Shown piece by piece: positions 35,750-51,840 of a stretch of 64,000 nucleotides of DNA. Both the position numbers and the translations under genes were made by a program. The notes beneath the pieces were generated by a model that saw nothing but the letters and a program-made list of their open reading frames with translations, did no database searches and was not told where the DNA came from. Origin of the DNA: a phage. The stretch lies in assembly GCA_024674815.1 (NCBI GenBank), contig GCA_024674815.1_4104.1. One strand, 5' to 3'. Every line of letters starts with the position of its first letter. Position 1 is the first letter of the stretch.

Positions 35750-36112
35750 TTATTTCCTCATACCCAAACGTTGGTGGATTTCAGAGATCTTTATATATAA
35801 TAGTACCACAAGGTGCAGTACTAAACAACATATAATTACGGCTAATACCAATGAACATATCATAAGACCGAAGGTTATTGTATTCAAAGAGGATGTGAAC
35901 AGTCCAATTATTAATACAATAAAACCAAAATTGAATACTGTACCCAACACAGTATATGCTGGACTATATCTCTTTTGGATTACATCATATATATTTGATA
36001 ATGGTCGCTTATGGAAGTACTTCCCAATGCACACGAATGCATTCAGTGAGAAGATAAATGTATACGCCATTACTAGTAATTGACCAACGAAAGATAATTC
36101 TATCCCATTCAT
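35750..36112 (-). CDS. small membrane protein, family member (120 aa)
   Basis: start at MNGIELSF (ATG abutting upstream stop). Confidence 0.5.
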   Translation of the reverse strand: MNGIELSFVGQLLVMAYTFIFSLNAFVCIGKYFHKRPLSNIYDVIQKRYSPAYTVLGTVFNFGFIVLIIGLFTSSLNTITFGLMICSLVLAVIICCLVLHLVVLLYIKISEIHQRLGMRK

Positions 36113-36113
36113 A

Positions 36114-36482
36114 CTAACCTCGTTTACGTTTTTTAATTGTACTGTGCATCTTTTCGAAATAGGGAACCAAAACATATTGAACAGTTTGCCAGATAACCAT
36201 TAGATTATGCACTGCACCACCAAGGATACCAAACACTAGAACAATAATTGCCATAATAGGATCACCGTCTACCATACCCCATTTAAAGATATGTAAAATC
36301 CAAGCAATGACTAGACAAAATAAACTAAGCCAATACGTAATGAAAAATCCGGCTTGTAATTCATAATCATCAGCAATTTCATCGTATACCGTTTCTAAAA
36401 ATGATACACAAAAGAATTTACCAATTATAACCACAGTACTAATAAACAGCATAGCAGTTAAGATAATAAGAGCAATTTCCAT
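36114..36482 (-). CDS. small membrane protein, family member (122 aa)
   Basis: hydrophobic helices; basic C-tail KKRKRG. Confidence 0.55.
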   Translation of the reverse strand: MEIALIILTAMLFISTVVIIGKFFCVSFLETVYDEIADDYELQAGFFITYWLSLFCLVIAWILHIFKWGMVDGDPIMAIIVLVFGILGGAVHNLMVIWQTVQYVLVPYFEKMHSTIKKRKRG

Positions 36483-36796
36483 TACATCCCTCGTTTACGC
36501 TTTTGATTGCGTCTAAATTCTGATAGTCCACGGCTAATCGGCGGCATCAGACTACATAAAAAAGTAACAGTTGTTGGTAGTAACATCAAGTCAATCATTG
36601 CAGTGTTATCTGGTGGATCAAAAACCAAAAAATACACACAAGAAACACTAATAATGGTTGAACCGATAAAAGGAATACAAAATTCTTTTATCTGTTTTTC
36701 AACATAATCAAACATCTTGAGTACAAATAAAAATCCAACCCAACACATAATGAAATAGAATGAATACAACGTGTAAATCAATGTTACTATATCCAT
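36482..36796 (-). CDS. small membrane protein, family member (104 aa)
   Basis: start/stop overlap with neighbours. Confidence 0.55.
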   Translation of the reverse strand: MDIVTLIYTLYSFYFIMCWVGFLFVLKMFDYVEKQIKEFCIPFIGSTIISVSCVYFLVFDPPDNTAMIDLMLLPTTVTFLCSLMPPISRGLSEFRRNQKRKRGM

Positions 36797-37134
36797 TAGT
36801 ACCTCGCATCAGGAACTTTAGCACGTAACTTATGAACGACTGGGAACAACAACAAACTTACATATGCAATAGTTGAACCCCAATAGAATACTAATACAAT
36901 TGGTTCACCATTAGAACGGAAACCTCTACTAATCATTGAGTAGTGAATAATAGGCATAATCATCGCCATACCAAACCATGCGTGTAATTTTAATTGCAGC
37001 ATGTTATCAGCGATGAATACTGAAATTGGTCGTTTAAAGAACCACATCAGAAAGTAGAATCCAGCACTAATAATATAGTACATGGTACTAACTTTCATAT
37101 ACCACGGCAGTAAATCAATAAAGTACTCCATCAT
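36796..37134 (-). CDS. small membrane protein, family member (112 aa)
   Basis: hydrophobic helices. Confidence 0.55.
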   Translation of the reverse strand: MMEYFIDLLPWYMKVSTMYYIISAGFYFLMWFFKRPISVFIADNMLQLKLHAWFGMAMIMPIIHYSMISRGFRSNGEPIVLVFYWGSTIAYVSLLLFPVVHKLRAKVPDARY

Positions 37135-37478
37135 TCCTCCGGTATCTTATTTCGAAGTTCAATCATAACACAACAAATTTTAATGGTCAATATAAAAGTT
37201 AAACATATCATCCCAAGTGTGCCGTAAACTGCGGAAAAAGCTGGTAGTACCTTTCCTGTGAGTGTTGCTACAATACATGCAATCAATGTTGATGCAAACA
37301 ACGATTGATTAATGGCAGAATTTATAAAATCTTCACCATTACGTTTATAGAATTGTCGTTTAAAATACCATCCTAGAAACATAACTACCCAAAATGATAC
37401 ATAAGTTGTTAGAATAATCCCTGCAAGTGAATGTGCAACTGGACTACTCCTTAAAAACTCAAGATAAGCTTCAAACAT
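37131..37478 (-). CDS. small membrane protein, family member (115 aa)
   Basis: C-term RNKIPEE motif. Confidence 0.55.
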   Translation of the reverse strand: MFEAYLEFLRSSPVAHSLAGIILTTYVSFWVVMFLGWYFKRQFYKRNGEDFINSAINQSLFASTLIACIVATLTGKVLPAFSAVYGTLGMICLTFILTIKICCVMIELRNKIPEE

Positions 37479-37816
37479 TAGAAGTCTCCGCGAATTTTAT
37501 CTCTACCATGAATAATGAGATGGATTAAGTATACAACTAACCAAATGAACAACCCAAAGAATACAATATATTGTGAGATTGAGTTCAAATGAGGATTAGC
37601 ACAATAAATTAAGTGTGCCATAAGACCAACAATTGCAAACAAACCTTGAACTAGTGTGTAAAGAACTAGTGATGAATTCCTTACTGGATACAGTTTAAAA
37701 ACAATTTTCTTTTTAAAATACCACAGTACTACAACCAGTGCATGATAAAAGAAAAAACCAAACAGATAAATCAAAGTAATACTAATCATTGTATCTGAAT
37801 TAAAAAACTCAAGCAT
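37478..37816 (-). CDS. small membrane protein, family member (112 aa)
   Basis: first gene of 7-gene membrane array. Confidence 0.55.
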   Translation of the reverse strand: MLEFFNSDTMISITLIYLFGFFFYHALVVVLWYFKKKIVFKLYPVRNSSLVLYTLVQGLFAIVGLMAHLIYCANPHLNSISQYIVFFGLFIWLVVYLIHLIIHGRDKIRGDF

Positions 37817-37881: not shown

Positions 37882-38652
37882 TTAAATTTTCTCAAGGAAC
37901 AAGTTTTCGCACTGCTCTTCCCAATCGTATGGGTTGTTGTTATATACTGCCGAAATCAACAGTGGCATACGCAGTGAAGGTGAACGAAGAGAATCTTCGT
38001 GCTTCAACATCCAGTTCAGAATTGCTTTACTACCATTACGGTTAATACCCTTAGATTCTAAAATGTTAGTCTGATTCATCACGTTCTCAATGTGAATCAT
38101 GATATCGCTTTTGGTCTGAATCTGTAAGTCAACGTATACAGAACGAGACATAAGAGCAGCATAGTGAGCAGACATTTTCGTTTTAGCTTTAGCATCTAAT
38201 GCTAAATCTTTGTTAGTGATGAATACGATACGACCGTTAAAATCAAAGCTGTTAGGGATACCGTTAGTGGTTAAGTACTTAGAGCTAGTCATGTAAGACA
38301 CAGTACGTTTACCGCTGTCCAGTACTGCTTTGAGCAGGTTCATACCGTCTTCTGAATCAAAGATGCTGTCCATATCATCCAGTACTAATACGTTAGTGCT
38401 GTGACGATTCTTGTACAGAACTTCGTACAGAGCCAGAGTAGTCATTTTACCACTGATGGTAGCTACGTTCCATTCTGCTGCGTCATGAGCTTTCTGGAGG
38501 CGTTTAGACAGGGTGTAAGTCTTACCAACACCAGGAGCACCACTGACAACCATACTTTTTACAGTACTGCTATCGTCGAGCAAACACTCAAGAGCAACCA
38601 TCATGGAGTTGAAGTTTTTCTGGATTTGAATGCTACGTGCTTCTCTGGTCAT
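37882..38652 (-). CDS. P-loop (AAA+-like) ATPase (256 aa)
   Basis: Walker A GAPGVGKT, Walker B VLVLDDMD. Confidence 0.65.
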   Translation of the reverse strand: MTREARSIQIQKNFNSMMVALECLLDDSSTVKSMVVSGAPGVGKTYTLSKRLQKAHDAAEWNVATISGKMTTLALYEVLYKNRHSTNVLVLDDMDSIFDSEDGMNLLKAVLDSGKRTVSYMTSSKYLTTNGIPNSFDFNGRIVFITNKDLALDAKAKTKMSAHYAALMSRSVYVDLQIQTKSDIMIHIENVMNQTNILESKGINRNGSKAILNWMLKHEDSLRSPSLRMPLLISAVYNNNPYDWEEQCENLFLEKI

Positions 38653-38687
38653 TTCGTTATCCTCATCAGTTGATGAAATAATTATAG

Positions 38688-38718
38688 CAAAAAGGGCCGA
38701 CCGAAGTCAACCCTTTTC
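38688..38718 (-). terminator. UUCG-loop terminator with embedded promoter -35
   Basis: GGGUUGAC-UUCG-GUCGGCCC + U-run; TTGAC in stem, TATAAT ~18 nt downstream. Confidence 0.5.
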
Positions 38719-38721
38719 TTG

Positions 38722-39843
38722 TTATTGTTTTACACCACCCCATTTTTCATAGATGGCAATAATTTTATCTATGTTGTTTGGTGTCGTAGTTTCAGTATAC
38801 CCATCCGGCATTTCACGTTTAGTTAAAATACCTTTTCCAAACAGTTTCTTGCATTCTTTTTCAGCTTGCTTACACTGTTCTACCGTTGGGAATAGATAAA
38901 AACATATTATTTCAACATTAAATACTGATTTACTATTTTGCTGGTAAACACGTTTCCCTTTTTGTTTTTCAATACCATATTTCAATGCAACGGGTAAACC
39001 ATTGTCTGAAATATTATTAATATAAGCATATTTCTGTGAAAGCCCAGCAGCAAGTGGATGTCCCTGACCCTTAAAAAAATTACTTGGTAGAATATCAAAC
39101 TCACCAAATTCAGGATCAATAATAGTTACTTTTGTTTTGTTATTAATATAATTAACTTTACTATAATCAAAATCAACATCAGTTCTTCTTTTTTTTGCTT
39201 CTTCAATGAATTGCTCTGTTGTTTTTTTTACGGTGCCACCACGCATTGGATGTCCACTACCACTCAAAAAATTACCAGGTGTAACTTCAAACTCACCAAA
39301 TTCAGGATCAATAATAGTTATTTTTGTATGATAATTAATATAATTAACTTTACTATAATCAAAATCAACATCAGTTCTTCTTTTTTTTGCTTCTTCAATG
39401 AATTGTTCAGTTGATGATGAGCGTGATTTTTTTTGTACCATTCTACCACGTGCAAAATGATTTATACCACTCAAAAAACTATTTGGTAGAATATCAAACT
39501 CACCAAATTCAGGATCAATAATAGTTATTTTCGTTTTAGCATTAATATAATTAACTTTACTATAATCAAAATCAATATCAGTTCTTCTTTCTTTCGCTAA
39601 AGAAATAAAGTGTTCTTTGGATTGTGTAAGTTTTTTTGATATTTTTTGTCTTCCACGCATAAGATGTCCACTACCACGTAGAAAACTATCTGGTGTAATA
39701 TCAAACTCACCAAATTCAGGATCAATAATAGTTACTTTTGTTTTGTTATTAATATAATTAACTTTACTATAATCAAAATCAACATCAGTTCTTCTTTTTT
39801 TTGCTTCTTCAATGAATTGTTCAGTTGTTTTTTTAGCACACAT
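38722..39843 (-). CDS. 4x ~65-aa repeat protein with C-terminal GIY-YIG/T5orf172-like region (373 aa)
   Basis: four tandem repeats ...FDYSKVNYIN-KTK-TIIDPEFGEF...; C-term assignment tentative. Confidence 0.5.
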   Translation of the reverse strand: MCAKKTTEQFIEEAKKRRTDVDFDYSKVNYINNKTKVTIIDPEFGEFDITPDSFLRGSGHLMRGRQKISKKLTQSKEHFISLAKERRTDIDFDYSKVNYINAKTKITIIDPEFGEFDILPNSFLSGINHFARGRMVQKKSRSSSTEQFIEEAKKRRTDVDFDYSKVNYINYHTKITIIDPEFGEFEVTPGNFLSGSGHPMRGGTVKKTTEQFIEEAKKRRTDVDFDYSKVNYINNKTKVTIIDPEFGEFDILPSNFFKGQGHPLAAGLSQKYAYINNISDNGLPVALKYGIEKQKGKRVYQQNSKSVFNVEIICFYLFPTVEQCKQAEKECKKLFGKGILTKREMPDGYTETTTPNNIDKIIAIYEKWGGVKQ

Positions 39844-40072
39844 TACTTAAAACTCCTTTCCAGTACTGAACCCGTCCAGCACCATTAATCTTAGCCTGAA
39901 TCTTATCTTTTTCAACAAGACCTTCTTTGTAATCGATGGAAGTATTATCGCACTTAATTACATCCAAGTCAAGTACTTCTTGTGTACTTAATGAAGTATT
40001 GTCTGCAATTTGTTGTAAAGTAATAATATCAGTACCGAAGAATTCTGCTAAACGTATAAAAGATAGTTTCAT
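39833..40072 (-). CDS. hypothetical protein (79 aa)
   Basis: ATG ORF. Confidence 0.5.
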   Translation of the reverse strand: MKLSFIRLAEFFGTDIITLQQIADNTSLSTQEVLDLDVIKCDNTSIDYKEGLVEKDKIQAKINGAGRVQYWKGVLSNVC

Positions 40073-40105
40073 GTATTACCTCTCGTTTCGATAAAATAAT
40101 TATAG

Positions 40106-40135
40106 CAAAAAGGGCTGACCGAAGTCAACCCTTTA
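40106..40135 (-). terminator. UUCG-loop terminator/promoter element
   Basis: conserved GGGCTGACCGAAGTCAACCC. Confidence 0.5.
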
Positions 40136-40137
40136 TG

Positions 40138-40497
40138 TTATTCTAATTCACTCATAGTAGTAATAGTTAAGCCCATTTCTTCTGCAATGTTGCATAACAG
40201 ACCAACTGCATTACGAAGAATATCAGTGTTGTCCACCGAGAATGATGAGTTTTCATTTACAGTTGAAGACTCAATGTAGTACTCAAAATAACGAGAAGTT
40301 GAACGCACAACTTTAACACCTTCATACTTCTGTAGTTCATAGTTGATACGCTCGATGAGTGAATCTTCCAGTACTCGATAGTCACCATTCATTCCACGTT
40401 TCCATCCATCAGCAGGACGGAAATAAAAAGTTTTTGTACGTTGAATTGTTGAGATTGTTAGTGGGTTGTATTCCGCGATTTCACTTAAAGATGCCAT
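40138..40497 (-). CDS. hypothetical protein (119 aa)
   Basis: ATG ORF; TTGACA-17-TATTAT promoter ~40515-40550. Confidence 0.55.
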   Translation of the reverse strand: MASLSEIAEYNPLTISTIQRTKTFYFRPADGWKRGMNGDYRVLEDSLIERINYELQKYEGVKVVRSTSRYFEYYIESSTVNENSSFSVDNTDILRNAVGLLCNIAEEMGLTITTMSELE

Positions 40498-40603
40498 GTT
40501 GTATTCCTCATTTGGTGATGTACATAATACAGAAAGATAGAACAGGTGTCAATGTTTATATCTCAAATATCCAAATACTTTGGTGTAGCACATACTACAT
40601 CAA

Positions 40604-40798
40604 CTAATCCTCGCTGAAGACAACAATAAGGAATGACACGAACAATGCCGCATAACAAGGAGCTATCTTCATGTACCACGGTACTTCATAATACCATGTA
40701 CCCAATTCATCCCACGAAAAGAGTATACTCAAACCGAAGCCGATTAGCGATAGTACAATAAAAGAAATCCAGAAACGCTTTGAATATACTAATAACAT
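40604..40798 (-). CDS. small membrane protein (64 aa)
   Basis: two hydrophobic segments. Confidence 0.45.
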   Translation of the reverse strand: MLLVYSKRFWISFIVLSLIGFGLSILFSWDELGTWYYEVPWYMKIAPCYAALFVSFLIVVFSED

Positions 40799-40836: not shown

Positions 40837-41352
40837 TTAATAATTATTCATTTCATCTTTGATTTGTTCTTCAATTTCGTCGAACATATCAGTACTAGAT
40901 TCGTTCTTACTACTTACGTTCTGCATATCTTTAACGTACTGTGGACATTCAACATCAGTAAACTTATACCACGTAGGCTTCATCTGGAGCTTCTCAATCA
41001 AACGATCACGAGACATTTTAATCTCTGACTCCGATGGTACATAGTCATTACAAAACTCAGCAGGGAAGCCGCTAATGTCGTTTACTTCAGTGTTTTGAAT
41101 CTTCATACCACGACGCAGACATTCGTTGACAATATCAATATGACGCTTCTGTAAGTACAGTAACTTGTCGTAGAAAAATGTTACATGACCTGAACCTAAC
41201 AGATAAGTACTGTTAATTTTGAAATCACGTACACGCTTACGTGCTTGAACGTGTTTTTGTACAGCACCAAATACACGTGGGAGTTCACGATATTCAGCCA
41301 TCAGATGTTGGTCAGCAAGTTCTTTAACGTGTACTAAGTTAATGCGTGTCAT
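40837..41352 (-). CDS. denV: endonuclease V, pyrimidine-dimer DNA glycosylase (T4 DenV homolog) with C-terminal extension
   Basis: N-terminal ~130 aa recalled as near-colinear with T4 DenV (MTRINL...[21 protein letters not shown]...). Confidence 0.8.
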
Positions 41353-41387
41353 GTATTCATCCTCTCGTTTCGATGAAATGATTATAG

Positions 41388-41420
41388 CAAAAAGGGCCGA
41401 CTGAAGTCAACCCTTTTTTT
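41388..41420 (-). terminator. UUCG-like terminator/promoter element
   Basis: conserved hairpin; TTGACT-18-TATAAT upstream of denV. Confidence 0.5.
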
Positions 41421-45923: not shown

Positions 45924-45960
45924 TACTTTATCCTCTGTAGTTAATACCAACATCATAACA

Positions 45961-45988
45961 AAAAAGGCTGACCGAAGTCAACCCTTTT
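45961..45988 (-). terminator. UUCG-loop terminator/promoter element
   Basis: GGCTGACCGAAGTCAACC. Confidence 0.5.
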
Positions 45989-46755: not shown

Positions 46756-47007
46756 TCACCGGAACTCTTTTTCTATTCCCATTACATCAGTCTTACGCTC
46801 AGATAGTATACCTGAAGTATATGAATCTTTGTTGTCAAACGCATTAAATCCAATAGTTCTGTCGGTGTCGTGTATTATTCCTTTTGTGTATGAGGTAGTA
46901 TAGAACTCCCCATTTCTGAAATCCTGCCTTGCTACGGAGCAATGATAATCTGCACCATAAGCAGTACTGGAAAATAATACAATTCCAAATATAATATATT
47001 TTTTCAT
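46756..47007 (-). CDS. secreted small protein (83 aa)
   Basis: internal ATG gives signal peptide MKKYIIFGIVLFSSTAYG; longer ORF overlaps terminator. Confidence 0.5.
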   Translation of the reverse strand: MKKYIIFGIVLFSSTAYGADYHCSVARQDFRNGEFYTTSYTKGIIHDTDRTIGFNAFDNKDSYTSGILSERKTDVMGIEKEFR

Positions 47008-47043
47008 TGTAATCCCTCTTCTTAATTCCTCTTTTGTATTTAC

Positions 47044-47073
47044 AAAAAAAGGCTGACCGAAGTCAACCTTTTG
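47044..47073 (-). terminator. UUCG-loop terminator
   Basis: GGCTGACCGAAGTCAACC. Confidence 0.5.
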
Positions 47074-47078
47074 TTTTA

Positions 47079-48356
47079 TCATTTACCGTATTTGCTCATG
47101 ATGTCCTTTTCCCAAGGAGTTACATTTCCATTTTCGTAATCACGGAAAGAGTCATCAAGTGTAGTCAATGCATAATCATATGCCTCACCGGATTCAACAT
47201 CAATATCAACAGCACCATTCACTACATCAGTCCACGCTTTTTGTAGTTTACGAGCGTTGTTACCAACTTTATCTTTAATCCAACTAAGATTTCGGTTTAT
47301 ACTCTTCTTATCAGCACCAGCTTTTTCACCAACATCTGCAACCCATTGCATTAATTTCTGTAGTTCGTTATGGGATTTTTCAGTCATTTGGCGGTCTTGT
47401 GACAGTTCAGCTTCCATGTCATCAATTTCTTCGTCTGAATGAACATCGTTCTGTTCTACTGCACCTTCTTCATCATCACGCATCAGATAACCATCTCGTG
47501 TAACCTTCTCACCATGATCAGCTTCATACTTTTTCATAGTATTGAATGCAGCATCCATTGCAGTTACAAAACGACTCTTTTCACCTTGTACATAAGATTT
47601 AAGTGCATCGTTAACTGCATCAGATACTAATTTAATCTTATCGTCTTTACCTTCCAGACGGTTTTCTAACTTAGCTAGTACATTCTTAACTTTTTGAGCA
47701 TTAGCACGGTCTTCTTTACCAATACTATCAAATGTTTTAAGTACGCTTTCAAGACTTACTTCCTCTTGTGCAGGCACATCACCTTGTTGCGTACCTTCAA
47801 GTGCACGCATTATAGTACTGAATACTTCAGTTGGTTCAGTACTGGTATTTCCACTCATTGCATCAAGCACAGCTTGTGCTTTGACTTTTAATTCTTCTTT
47901 AGGTACAGATTGCAATTCTTTCACAATACCTTGGATAAGTTGTGGTTTATTAGCAAAAATCTTACCTAACTTATCCGACAGTTCTTTGACAGGGTTAACC
48001 GCCTTTGGTGCTTCTTGTTTTGGTTCTTCTTTAGCAGGAGCAGATTTTTCTTTTTCTTCACGTTCCATATCAGCTAGGCGTTGTTTTTGTGTAGCATTAA
48101 GAAGTCCCAATGAATTAACATAACGTAGCTTTTCTAGCTCAGTCATGTTCTCAGTACTCTTAACTTCACCTGCTTCTGCGTTTGCTTTACCAGCTAGACC
48201 AGTTCCTTGGTTACGTGATCCACGTGAACCTTGACCTGCTTGATAACTATTTGGACGGCGGTTGCGTTCACTCCATTTATCAGAGTGACCAGCCATGTTA
48301 CCACCATTTTTATCAGTAAAATTACTTGGCATTTGATTTCTCTCCATAGATTTCAT
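47079..48356 (-). CDS. large Lys/Glu-rich protein with LxSLGLL motif (425 aa), late-expressed
   Basis: TATAAATA late-type promoter upstream; alternative starts at M4/M9. Confidence 0.55.
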   Translation of the reverse strand: MKSMERNQMPSNFTDKNGGNMAGHSDKWSERNRRPNSYQAGQGSRGSRNQGTGLAGKANAEAGEVKSTENMTELEKLRYVNSLGLLNATQKQRLADMEREEKEKSAPAKEEPKQEAPKAVNPVKELSDKLGKIFANKPQLIQGIVKELQSVPKEELKVKAQAVLDAMSGNTSTEPTEVFSTIMRALEGTQQGDVPAQEEVSLESVLKTFDSIGKEDRANAQKVKNVLAKLENRLEGKDDKIKLVSDAVNDALKSYVQGEKSRFVTAMDAAFNTMKKYEADHGEKVTRDGYLMRDDEEGAVEQNDVHSDEEIDDMEAELSQDRQMTEKSHNELQKLMQWVADVGEKAGADKKSINRNLSWIKDKVGNNARKLQKAWTDVVNGAVDIDVESGEAYDYALTTLDDSFRDYENGNVTPWEKDIMSKYGK

Positions 48357-51776: not shown

Positions 51777-51812
51777 AATTAAAATCCTCTAATTTATTAA
51801 GAGAATTATAAC

Positions 51813-51840
51813 AAAAAAGGCTGACCGAAGTCAACCTTTG
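51813..51840 (-). terminator. UUCG-loop terminator/promoter element
   Basis: GGCTGACCGAAGTCAACC. Confidence 0.5.

Follow-up and report, generated by a model that had tools for sequence, protein, structure and literature searches.

A T5orf172-class homing endonuclease-like gene with zinc-less repeats in a variable slot of an Asteriusvirus-like jumbo coliphage

We analysed a 64,000-nt stretch of phage DNA (contig GCA_024674815.1_4104.1 of GenBank assembly GCA_024674815.1; hereafter the window), and the subject of this report is a minus-strand gene at 38722-39843. It encodes a 373-aa protein composed of four N-terminal tandem repeats and a C-terminal T5orf172/GIY-YIG domain, and it resembles a free-standing homing endonuclease gene (HEG). 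Beyond about 34.6 kb, every gene of the window lies on the minus strand. The upstream neighbour of the nuclease gene is a 79-aa gene (39833-40072, minus strand; phrog_34150, function unknown), whose stop overlaps the nuclease start by 11 nt. The downstream neighbour, after a spacer of 69 nt, encodes a P-loop/AAA-type ATPase of 256 aa (37882-38652, minus strand). The region is 90-99% identical at the nucleotide level to the Asteriusvirus-type jumbo coliphages 121Q, PBECO4, phAPEC6, slurp01, G17 and E9.1, whose genomes measure 320-385 kb, and this similarity identifies the window as coming from an Asteriusvirus-like jumbo coliphage.

In NCBI, the exact 373-aa protein occurs in a sole entry, 'TPA: hypothetical protein NV753_001633 [Escherichia coli]'. 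It matches phrog_681 ('endonuclease') from end to end (E = 1e-59) and has 4758 homologs at E ≤ 1e-3. Scanned directly at full length against Pfam and NCBIfam, it gave spurious low-complexity matches alone (EF-hand_12, Peptidase_C58, trimeth_pyl and others), and a search of the 64-kb window found no paralog of the gene. An HNH nuclease was considered and rejected: the PHROG label 'HNH endonuclease' (phrog_559) covers the repeat region alone (aa 3-199), and neither an HNH motif nor an HNH domain is present.

Tandem repeats related to a zinc-finger family

The repeat array is visible in both the DNA and the translation. Tandem Repeats Finder reports a single array (39074-39834; period 207 nt, 3.8 copies, 77% matches, score 874), and RRTD motifs start at aa 17, 86, 155 and 219, giving spacings of 69, 69 and 64 aa. 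Together with the column statistics and the structure prediction given below, this delimits four units of 62 aa (aa 5-66, 74-135, 143-204 and 207-268), encoded at 39040-39831 on the minus strand. Pairwise identity among the units is 76-87% for nucleotides and 65-81% for amino acids, and this similarity is far above chance.

Homologs of the 373-aa protein carry precomputed assignments to PF05265 (DUF723), mostly accompanied by PF14311 (DUF4379), and the repeat unit is homologous to the DUF723/DUF4379/CapR-type repeat. The window protein itself has no match to PF05265 in the local copy of Pfam. A hidden Markov model built from the four window units recovered 663 units in 129 collected proteins, mostly with 4-7 units per protein. 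The usual form of the unit is ...IIC-P-E-H-G-E-F...H-L-x-G-x-G-C-P-x-C, in which the ligands are C/H/C/C. The C-x2-H ... C-x2-C metal ligands are absent from the window units, which carry D, F, H and R/G/A instead. Two further conserved histidines are also replaced, by arginine at position 14 and by phenylalanine at position 50. Among the 663 homologous units, position 37 is C in 515 and D in 148, position 40 is H in 509, Y in 102 and F in 36, and position 50 is H in 607 and F in 47.

Judged by these alignments, the repeats belong to the DUF723/DUF4379 zinc-finger repeat family, with every predicted zinc ligand replaced. Since D occupies the first ligand position in about 22% of the sampled units, the zinc-less repeat appears to be a recurrent, conserved variant and no one-off decay. 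AlphaFold2, run on an alignment of two consecutive units, predicts a confident fold (predicted local distance difference test score, pLDDT, 88), in which each unit consists of an 11-residue helix, an extended segment, a β-hairpin and a short helix. For this two-repeat model, a search of the PDB found no similar solved structure.

The C-terminal nuclease domain

The C-terminal domain comprises aa 265-373 (38725-39051, minus strand). We aligned the last ~110 residues of the protein with nine homologs and searched this profile against 1.84 billion representative proteins, which gave 952 matches at E ≤ 1e-3 (representatives at 50% identity). Among the matches listed, the domain is C-terminal in nearly all of 150, and the host proteins are ~100-590 aa long. 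In a wider alignment of 60 sequences, the invariant positions are Y, K-x-G, R, E and D-G-x-x-E, and the window copy has kept all of them (Tyr274, Lys288, Gly290, Arg298, Glu328, Asp347, Gly348 and Glu351). We presume that these residues map onto the catalytic roles known from GIY-YIG enzymes, namely the Tyr of strand 1, the [YF]-G of strand 2, the Arg of helix 1 and the later acidic residues. By this comparison, the window domain carries conserved residues of the active-site type of the GIY-YIG superfamily. Scanned singly, 31 of the 60 aligned sequences match Pfam MUG113 and 30 match T5orf172, with best E values of 1e-6 and 5.7e-6, respectively.

The AlphaFold2 model computed from the 60-sequence alignment (aa 260-373) has a pLDDT of 91.9 and a predicted β-β-α-β-α core, as expected of a GIY-YIG fold. 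Its closest structural matches are SLX1 GIY-YIG nucleases, and the I-TevI catalytic domain (1ln0) is among the structural comparisons of the model. The SLX1/HIGLE nucleases (7wme, 6seh and 7cq2) share 11-15% sequence identity with the window domain; they are structure-specific eukaryotic repair enzymes with a RING/PHD partner domain, and they have no biological relation to the window gene. Sequence searches of the PDB with the 373-aa protein and with both C-terminal profiles returned nothing meaningful (McrB N-domain at E = 0.37, poxvirus F1L and TUP1).

Regarding its distribution, a tblastn search of 50,697 phage records found the domain in 248. The match to ICP1 tcgB, a 'putative homing endonuclease', has 40.6% identity over 97% coverage (E = 2e-15), and other carriers include phi92-like phages (e.g. 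muut) and RaK2-like jumbo phages. The predicted fold and the family alignment indicate that the domain is a divergent T5orf172/MUG113 member, which the Pfam model misses on its own. The first-pass annotation had described four tandem repeats of about 65 aa and a C-terminus that might be T5orf172/GIY-YIG-like. The former agrees with the array, the RRTD spacing of 64-69 aa and the identity of the units; the latter is borne out by the fold, the Pfam matches of family members and the homology to annotated ICP1 homing endonucleases.

Slot, junctions and flanking genes

The position between the ATPase gene and the 79-aa gene is a slot whose content differs among related phages. In the Salmonella phages SD-15_S21, SD-6_S16, SD-1_S14 and SD-2_S15 the slot is empty, with the ATPase and 79-aa-gene matches 68-69 nt apart, and in occupied slots the two matches are separated by 1181-2529 nt. 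In phAPEC6 and slurp01 it holds the gene of a T5orf172 protein of 628 aa, whose C-terminal domain is related to that of the window protein (77% aa and ~80% nt identity) and whose N-terminal region differs. The E9.1 slot contains a gene of this 628-aa type split by a frameshift (449 + 193 aa), and the WPEC5 slot contains scrambled fragments. The slot proteins of G17 (372 aa) and SHEFM2K (474 aa) both match phrog_9084/phrog_559 'homing endonuclease' and are unrelated to the window gene. They have a common C-terminal domain, other than that of the window, which we read from its sequence motifs as PD-(D/E)xK/Vsr-like. Turkey3 carries two unrelated genes in the slot, and PBECO4, UB, 121Q, A4, TH47 and Ecwhy_1 show other spacings between the ATPase gene and the 79-aa gene. 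In SP27 the 79-aa gene is missing along with the nuclease gene. This phage suggested that the 79-aa ORF (open reading frame) could be part of the mobile unit, a candidate ruled out by its presence in 29 phage records, including the phages with an empty slot. Thus, one locus is polymorphic for presence and absence of the nuclease gene among close relatives, with an intact empty site.

The nuclease allele of the window is found in no deposited phage. Its closest counterpart is a 432-aa gene of Turkey3 (78% nt identity), which occupies the adjacent slot, bounded by the 79-aa gene and denV. This is a second variable position, occupied in the window by genes of 119 and 64 aa (40138-40798). In WPEC5 and Turkey3 these two genes are replaced by a close relative of the window nuclease (loci L005, 4622-6409, and L008, 5000-6298), and the WPEC5 copy is split into three ORFs.

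We aligned the junctions of the window with those of the empty site and of three other occupants (phAPEC6, G17 and SHEFM2K). The empty site reads ...AAAGGAGTTTTAAGTAA followed by AAAAAGGGTTGACTTCGGTCGGCCC... across the insertion point. At the left border, the same ATG after AAAGGAGTTTTAAGTA starts four different nuclease ORFs, those of the window, phAPEC6, G17 and SHEFM2K, and in all of them this ATG overlaps or abuts a TAA at one position (GTAATG or GTAAATG). At the right border, all four ORFs stop 5-10 nt before a shared border sequence, which reads AAAAGGGTTGACTTCGG / AAAAGGGTTGAC. The four occupants that share these junctions represent two nuclease types. Because both junctions are shared by the four occupants when set against the empty site, the inserted DNA in the window (~38718-39842) is essentially the ORF alone, and the alignment indicates that the nuclease ORF by itself is the mobile unit.

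A Shine-Dalgarno sequence, AAGGAG, lies inside the 3' end of the 79-aa gene (39853-39858, minus strand), 9 nt before the nuclease ATG. It is kept in the phages with an empty slot and precedes the start of all four occupants. The C-terminus of the 79-aa protein itself varies with the slot content. With a nuclease gene inserted, its frame stops within the first codons of that gene; in the empty-slot phages the frame continues through the hairpin element described next, and in SD-15_S21 it is annotated as a coding sequence of 267 nt and 88 codons (locus L009, 2501-2767).

The slot is bordered by copies of a 35-bp element, AAGGGTTGACTTCGGTCRGCCCTTTTTGCTATAAT, which is present in five minus-strand copies in the window (38681-38715, 40099-40133, 41381-41415, 45952-45986 and 51805-51839), where no copy is expected by chance. 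It holds a TTGACT-18-TATAAT promoter sequence with TG before the TATAAT. Between the -35 TTGACT and the -10 TATAAT lies a hairpin (-18 kcal/mol; z = -4.5 and -6.0), then a run of U. The intergenic hairpins escaped a simple terminator scan, whereas folding shows them to be strong, and equivalent hairpins are annotated as terminators in phage G17. The copy at 38681-38715 forms the downstream border of the slot on the ATPase side. The copy at 40099-40133 precedes the 79-aa ORF, and the repeat gene only indirectly. A likely transcription unit would run from this promoter through the 79-aa gene and the nuclease gene to the hairpin at ~38690-38713. The ATPase gene would draw on the promoter half of the copy at 38681-38715, past the hairpin at which the nuclease transcript is predicted to stop.

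The element resembles the PeSL (promoter-early stem-loop) elements that Arbiol et al. reportedly described in 2010 from T4-type phages, in that a repeated intergenic hairpin lies between the -35 and -10 of a sigma-70-type promoter and edges variable small cassettes. It differs in phage group and in sequence, and its roles as promoter, terminator and recombination site are predicted. As a separate observation, the element borders small gene cassettes in the window that differ among relatives.

The ATPase shows a Walker A motif (GAPGVGKT) and a Walker B motif (VLVLDDMD) in its translation. It matches Pfam AAA (PF00004) with 23.5 bits against a cut-off of 21.2, and AAA_16 and AAA_22 weakly, under their cut-offs. 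It belongs to phrog_1250, a family of unknown function (E = 9e-104), and has 187 homologs, including those of Salmonella phage SE_PL/7t3 and EJP2. A sequence search of the PDB gave marginal P-loop matches alone (mS29, Cdc6 and RFC1, none below E = 0.09) and no closely related solved structure. The gene is full-length in 24 of the 27 matching phage records (90.5-99.9% identity), and in all 24 it sits at the same position whatever the slot contains, including nothing. Since it is present in every relative examined regardless of slot content, no functional pairing with the nuclease is indicated; the ATPase is a conserved resident neighbour, tied to the nuclease by linkage.

These results divide the earlier picture of the locus. 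The first-pass annotation had placed a Walker A/B ATPase directly downstream of the repeat gene and terminator/promoter elements on either side of the pair, and both descriptions hold, the former through the motifs, the AAA-type Pfam match and the 69-nt spacer, the latter through the 35-bp element at 38681-38715 and 40099-40133. Its suggestion of a mobile nuclease-type element is likewise upheld for the nuclease gene, whose slot is empty, otherwise filled or decayed in related phages. The idea of the two genes as a pair, a module or a 'DNA-binding plus ATPase system' finds no support, given an ATPase that occurs in all relatives and has its own predicted promoter after the hairpin, and a mobile unit that is the nuclease ORF alone. 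Conservation of the module at one locus throughout the relatives, which that annotation had named as evidence against its reading, is seen for the ATPase and not for the nuclease.

The ATPase gene is also a site of local divergence. Between ~30 and 55 kb, most 500-nt intervals of the window are 97-99.8% identical to G17, and the interval 38001-38500, inside the ATPase gene, falls to 90.2%. Over the 771 nt of the gene, the window differs by 1 nt from E9.1 and by 3 nt from phAPEC6, phages with a T5orf172-type occupant, and by 33-73 nt from the others: 33 in 121Q, 48 in SD-15_S21, 54 in WPEC5 and in Turkey3, 57 in G17, 71 in SP27 and 73 in SHEFM2K. The differences are mostly synonymous (0-13 aa). 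The alleles are mosaic, with breakpoints inside the gene. For example, the 121Q allele resembles that of G17 up to near nt 565 and that of the window after it, and the SD-15_S21 allele has the window sequence at nt 481-690 and departs from it elsewhere. This mosaic pattern fits nuclease genes that stand at recombination boundaries and co-convert their flanks, with a signal that is not clean. The densest cluster of substitutions lies at nt ~540-616 (aa ~180-205); as speculation, it might mark a recognition or immunity site of the nuclease.

Other features of the window lie beyond these genes. On the far side of the ATPase, 35377-37816 (minus strand) contains a tandem run of seven small genes (104-141 aa) for apparent multi-pass membrane proteins, at least some of them paralogous. 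An extra 342-nt paralog lies between the last of these and the ATPase gene in 121Q, SP27 and G17, and is missing from the window, E9.1, phAPEC6 and WPEC5. On the other side, 40837-41352 (minus strand) holds a gene for a pyrimidine-dimer glycosylase of the T4 endonuclease V (DenV) type, annotated so in relatives, whose end is truncated or altered in phAPEC6 and SHEFM2K (435 nt versus 516 nt). Identity to G17 falls locally for a second time at 47001-48000 (83-85% against a background of 97-99%), with an indel of ~300 nt near 47424-47444. The site corresponds to the ORF at 47079-48356 (minus strand), which encodes an acidic low-complexity protein of 425 aa and is no nuclease gene. On the plus strand, ~23000-34000 is a gene block whose G17 counterparts are ~380-aa paralogs annotated as 'DNA condensation protein', one of them with a COG5184/ATS1 note. 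Identity to G17 decreases to 80-88%, with gaps, at 25-28 kb, which suggests reshuffling of paralogs within the block. The sign of the GC skew flips at ~16 kb and ~34 kb, the points at which the coding strand switches.

Interpretation as a probable homing endonuclease gene

We read 38722-39843 as a T5orf172-class free-standing HEG in a hot-spot slot, with a probability of roughly 75%. The reading draws together how the protein is built and folded, what it is homologous to, how the slot content varies, where exactly the junctions fall, and the fact that the ATPase gene is locally divergent and mosaic. In the mechanism that we propose, the four independently folded N-terminal repeats of ~62 aa would read an extended DNA site, and the C-terminal GIY-YIG-fold T5orf172 domain would cut nearby DNA of co-infecting relatives that lack the gene. 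Repair from genomes that carry the HEG would copy the ORF, together with flanks of variable length, into the cut genome. For its translation, the ORF borrows the ribosome-binding site that lies within the end of the 79-aa gene, most likely on a transcript that starts from the element upstream of that gene and ends at the next element copy. The association of the ATPase with the nuclease would arise as linkage through co-conversion of flanking markers.

Several points weigh against this reading. Cleavage, the target site and homing, as well as DNA binding by the zinc-less repeats and current mobility, are what we infer from the sequence and the models. Every predicted zinc ligand has been lost from the repeats, so DNA binding is not to be assumed. 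Pfam T5orf172 (PF10544), MUG113 (PF13455) and GIY-YIG match neither the whole protein (E ≤ 1) nor the isolated domain (E ≤ 10). The 35-bp element could offer a nuclease-independent path by which cassettes are gained and lost through homologous recombination, and SP27 looks like a deletion between two of its copies. Finally, divergence within the ATPase gene is greatest away from the slot, unlike a simple co-conversion gradient, and the linkage of the window HEG with its ATPase allele is not simple either, because the phages that share this allele carry another T5orf172 allele, with ~80% nt identity in the C-terminal domain.

The alternative that survives best, which we nevertheless consider unlikely, is a domesticated HEG-derived protein, a sequence-specific weapon or regulator that serves the phage. 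Its possible roles include exclusion of co-infecting relatives, cutting of satellite or host targets in the manner of ICP1 Odn, and repressor-like binding in the manner of PLE CapR. The ICP1/PLE system offers instances of just such co-option, of T5orf172 nucleases as well as of their repeat domains (PMC10448857). Consistent with such a role, the window ORF is intact with all invariant residues while the copies in E9.1 and WPEC5 have decayed, and it is predicted to be co-transcribed with the conserved 79-aa gene, whose ribosome-binding site it uses. However, the slot is dispensable, being empty in four phages, and elsewhere it holds unrelated nuclease genes, a pattern that selfish turnover fits better; no satellite-like or host-like target was identified.

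Less probable again is an inactive remnant, a DNA-binding/nuclease fossil whose zinc-less repeats no longer fold or bind and which is kept since its deletion is neutral, moved passively by recombination between the repeated elements. The loss of all zinc ligands from the four repeats, the 35-bp direct repeats flanking the cassette, the resemblance of SP27 to a deletion between them and the decayed copies in relatives all favour it. Nevertheless, the 373-codon ORF is uninterrupted and all invariant residues of the nuclease domain are kept. The recurrence of the zinc-less type in many proteins (~22% of 663 units) and its good conservation speak for a functional variant, and the predicted fold of the repeats is confident (pLDDT 88).

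Least of all do we favour a two-gene functional module of repeat protein and ATPase, a DNA-binding/nuclease protein with its motor: the genes are adjacent on the same strand and the ATPase allele is near-identical (1-3 nt of 771) in three phages with a T5orf172-type occupant, but the ATPase persists beside an empty slot or an unrelated nuclease, its family reaches phages well outside the Asteriusvirus-like group, the nuclease domain occurs in its 248 phage records mostly beyond that group, and a hairpin and a promoter separate the two genes.

The HEG reading has precedents. In T4, the free-standing GIY-YIG homing endonucleases (Seg proteins) and I-TevI join a GIY-YIG nuclease to a separate DNA-binding region. 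The window gene is like them in being an intergenic insertion of an ORF only, between conserved genes, with presence and absence among relatives, and co-conversion of flanking markers is expected from this likeness. A closer parallel comes from Barth, Dunham and Seed (2023), who described T5orf172 HEGs in ICP1, T5-like and other phages (PMC10448857). In that study, 87% of these HEGs have one or more CapR/DUF723/DUF4379 zinc-finger domains, often repeated as 'beads on a string', their DNA repeats recombine, and the genes adjoin conserved genes at boundaries of genetic exchange (PMC10448857). The window gene shares with them the C-terminal T5orf172 domain, the N-terminal tandem DUF723/DUF4379/CapR-type repeats, a position next to conserved genes at exchange boundaries and degenerate intragenic nucleotide repeats (PMC10448857). 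It differs in two respects: its repeats lack the zinc ligands, whereas the published domains are treated as zinc fingers (PMC10448857), and its nuclease domain is too divergent for the Pfam T5orf172 model alone. The terms 'jumbo' and 'Asteriusvirus' do not occur in the main text of that paper (PMC10448857), and the host of the window gene is an Asteriusvirus-like jumbo coliphage.

The novelty is therefore modest. The architecture of 38722-39843 has already been described (PMC10448857), and the new points are the loss of all zinc ligands in a conserved array and the apparent ORF-for-ORF swapping of nuclease genes of two catalytic types at a shared start codon. Tentatively, and at clearly less than even odds, we combine these points in a joint proposal. 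The repeats would be zinc-free descendants of DUF723/DUF4379 that still bind DNA modularly, as a naturally reshuffled 'beads-on-a-string' array, and the slot would be a docking site, a dedicated position between the 79-aa gene and the ATPase gene. On one side its occupants would have a ribosome-binding site and start codon in common, on the other a hairpin/promoter, and nuclease ORFs of the two catalytic types would take each other's place there one for one.

For annotation, a 'hypothetical protein' in the database becomes a T5orf172-class homing endonuclease-like gene, and its relatives presently bear the labels 'HNH endonuclease', 'exonuclease ABC C subunit', 'DUF4379 domain-containing protein' or hypothetical. 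The neighbouring ATPase should not be annotated as a component of a nuclease or defence system. The repeats indicate that a widespread DNA-binding module can lose all of its predicted zinc ligands and yet stay conserved. Lastly, the locus forms a natural series, with an empty site, four different intact occupants, one copy broken by a frameshift and one reduced to fragments, which could be used to study replacement among competing homing endonucleases at one site.

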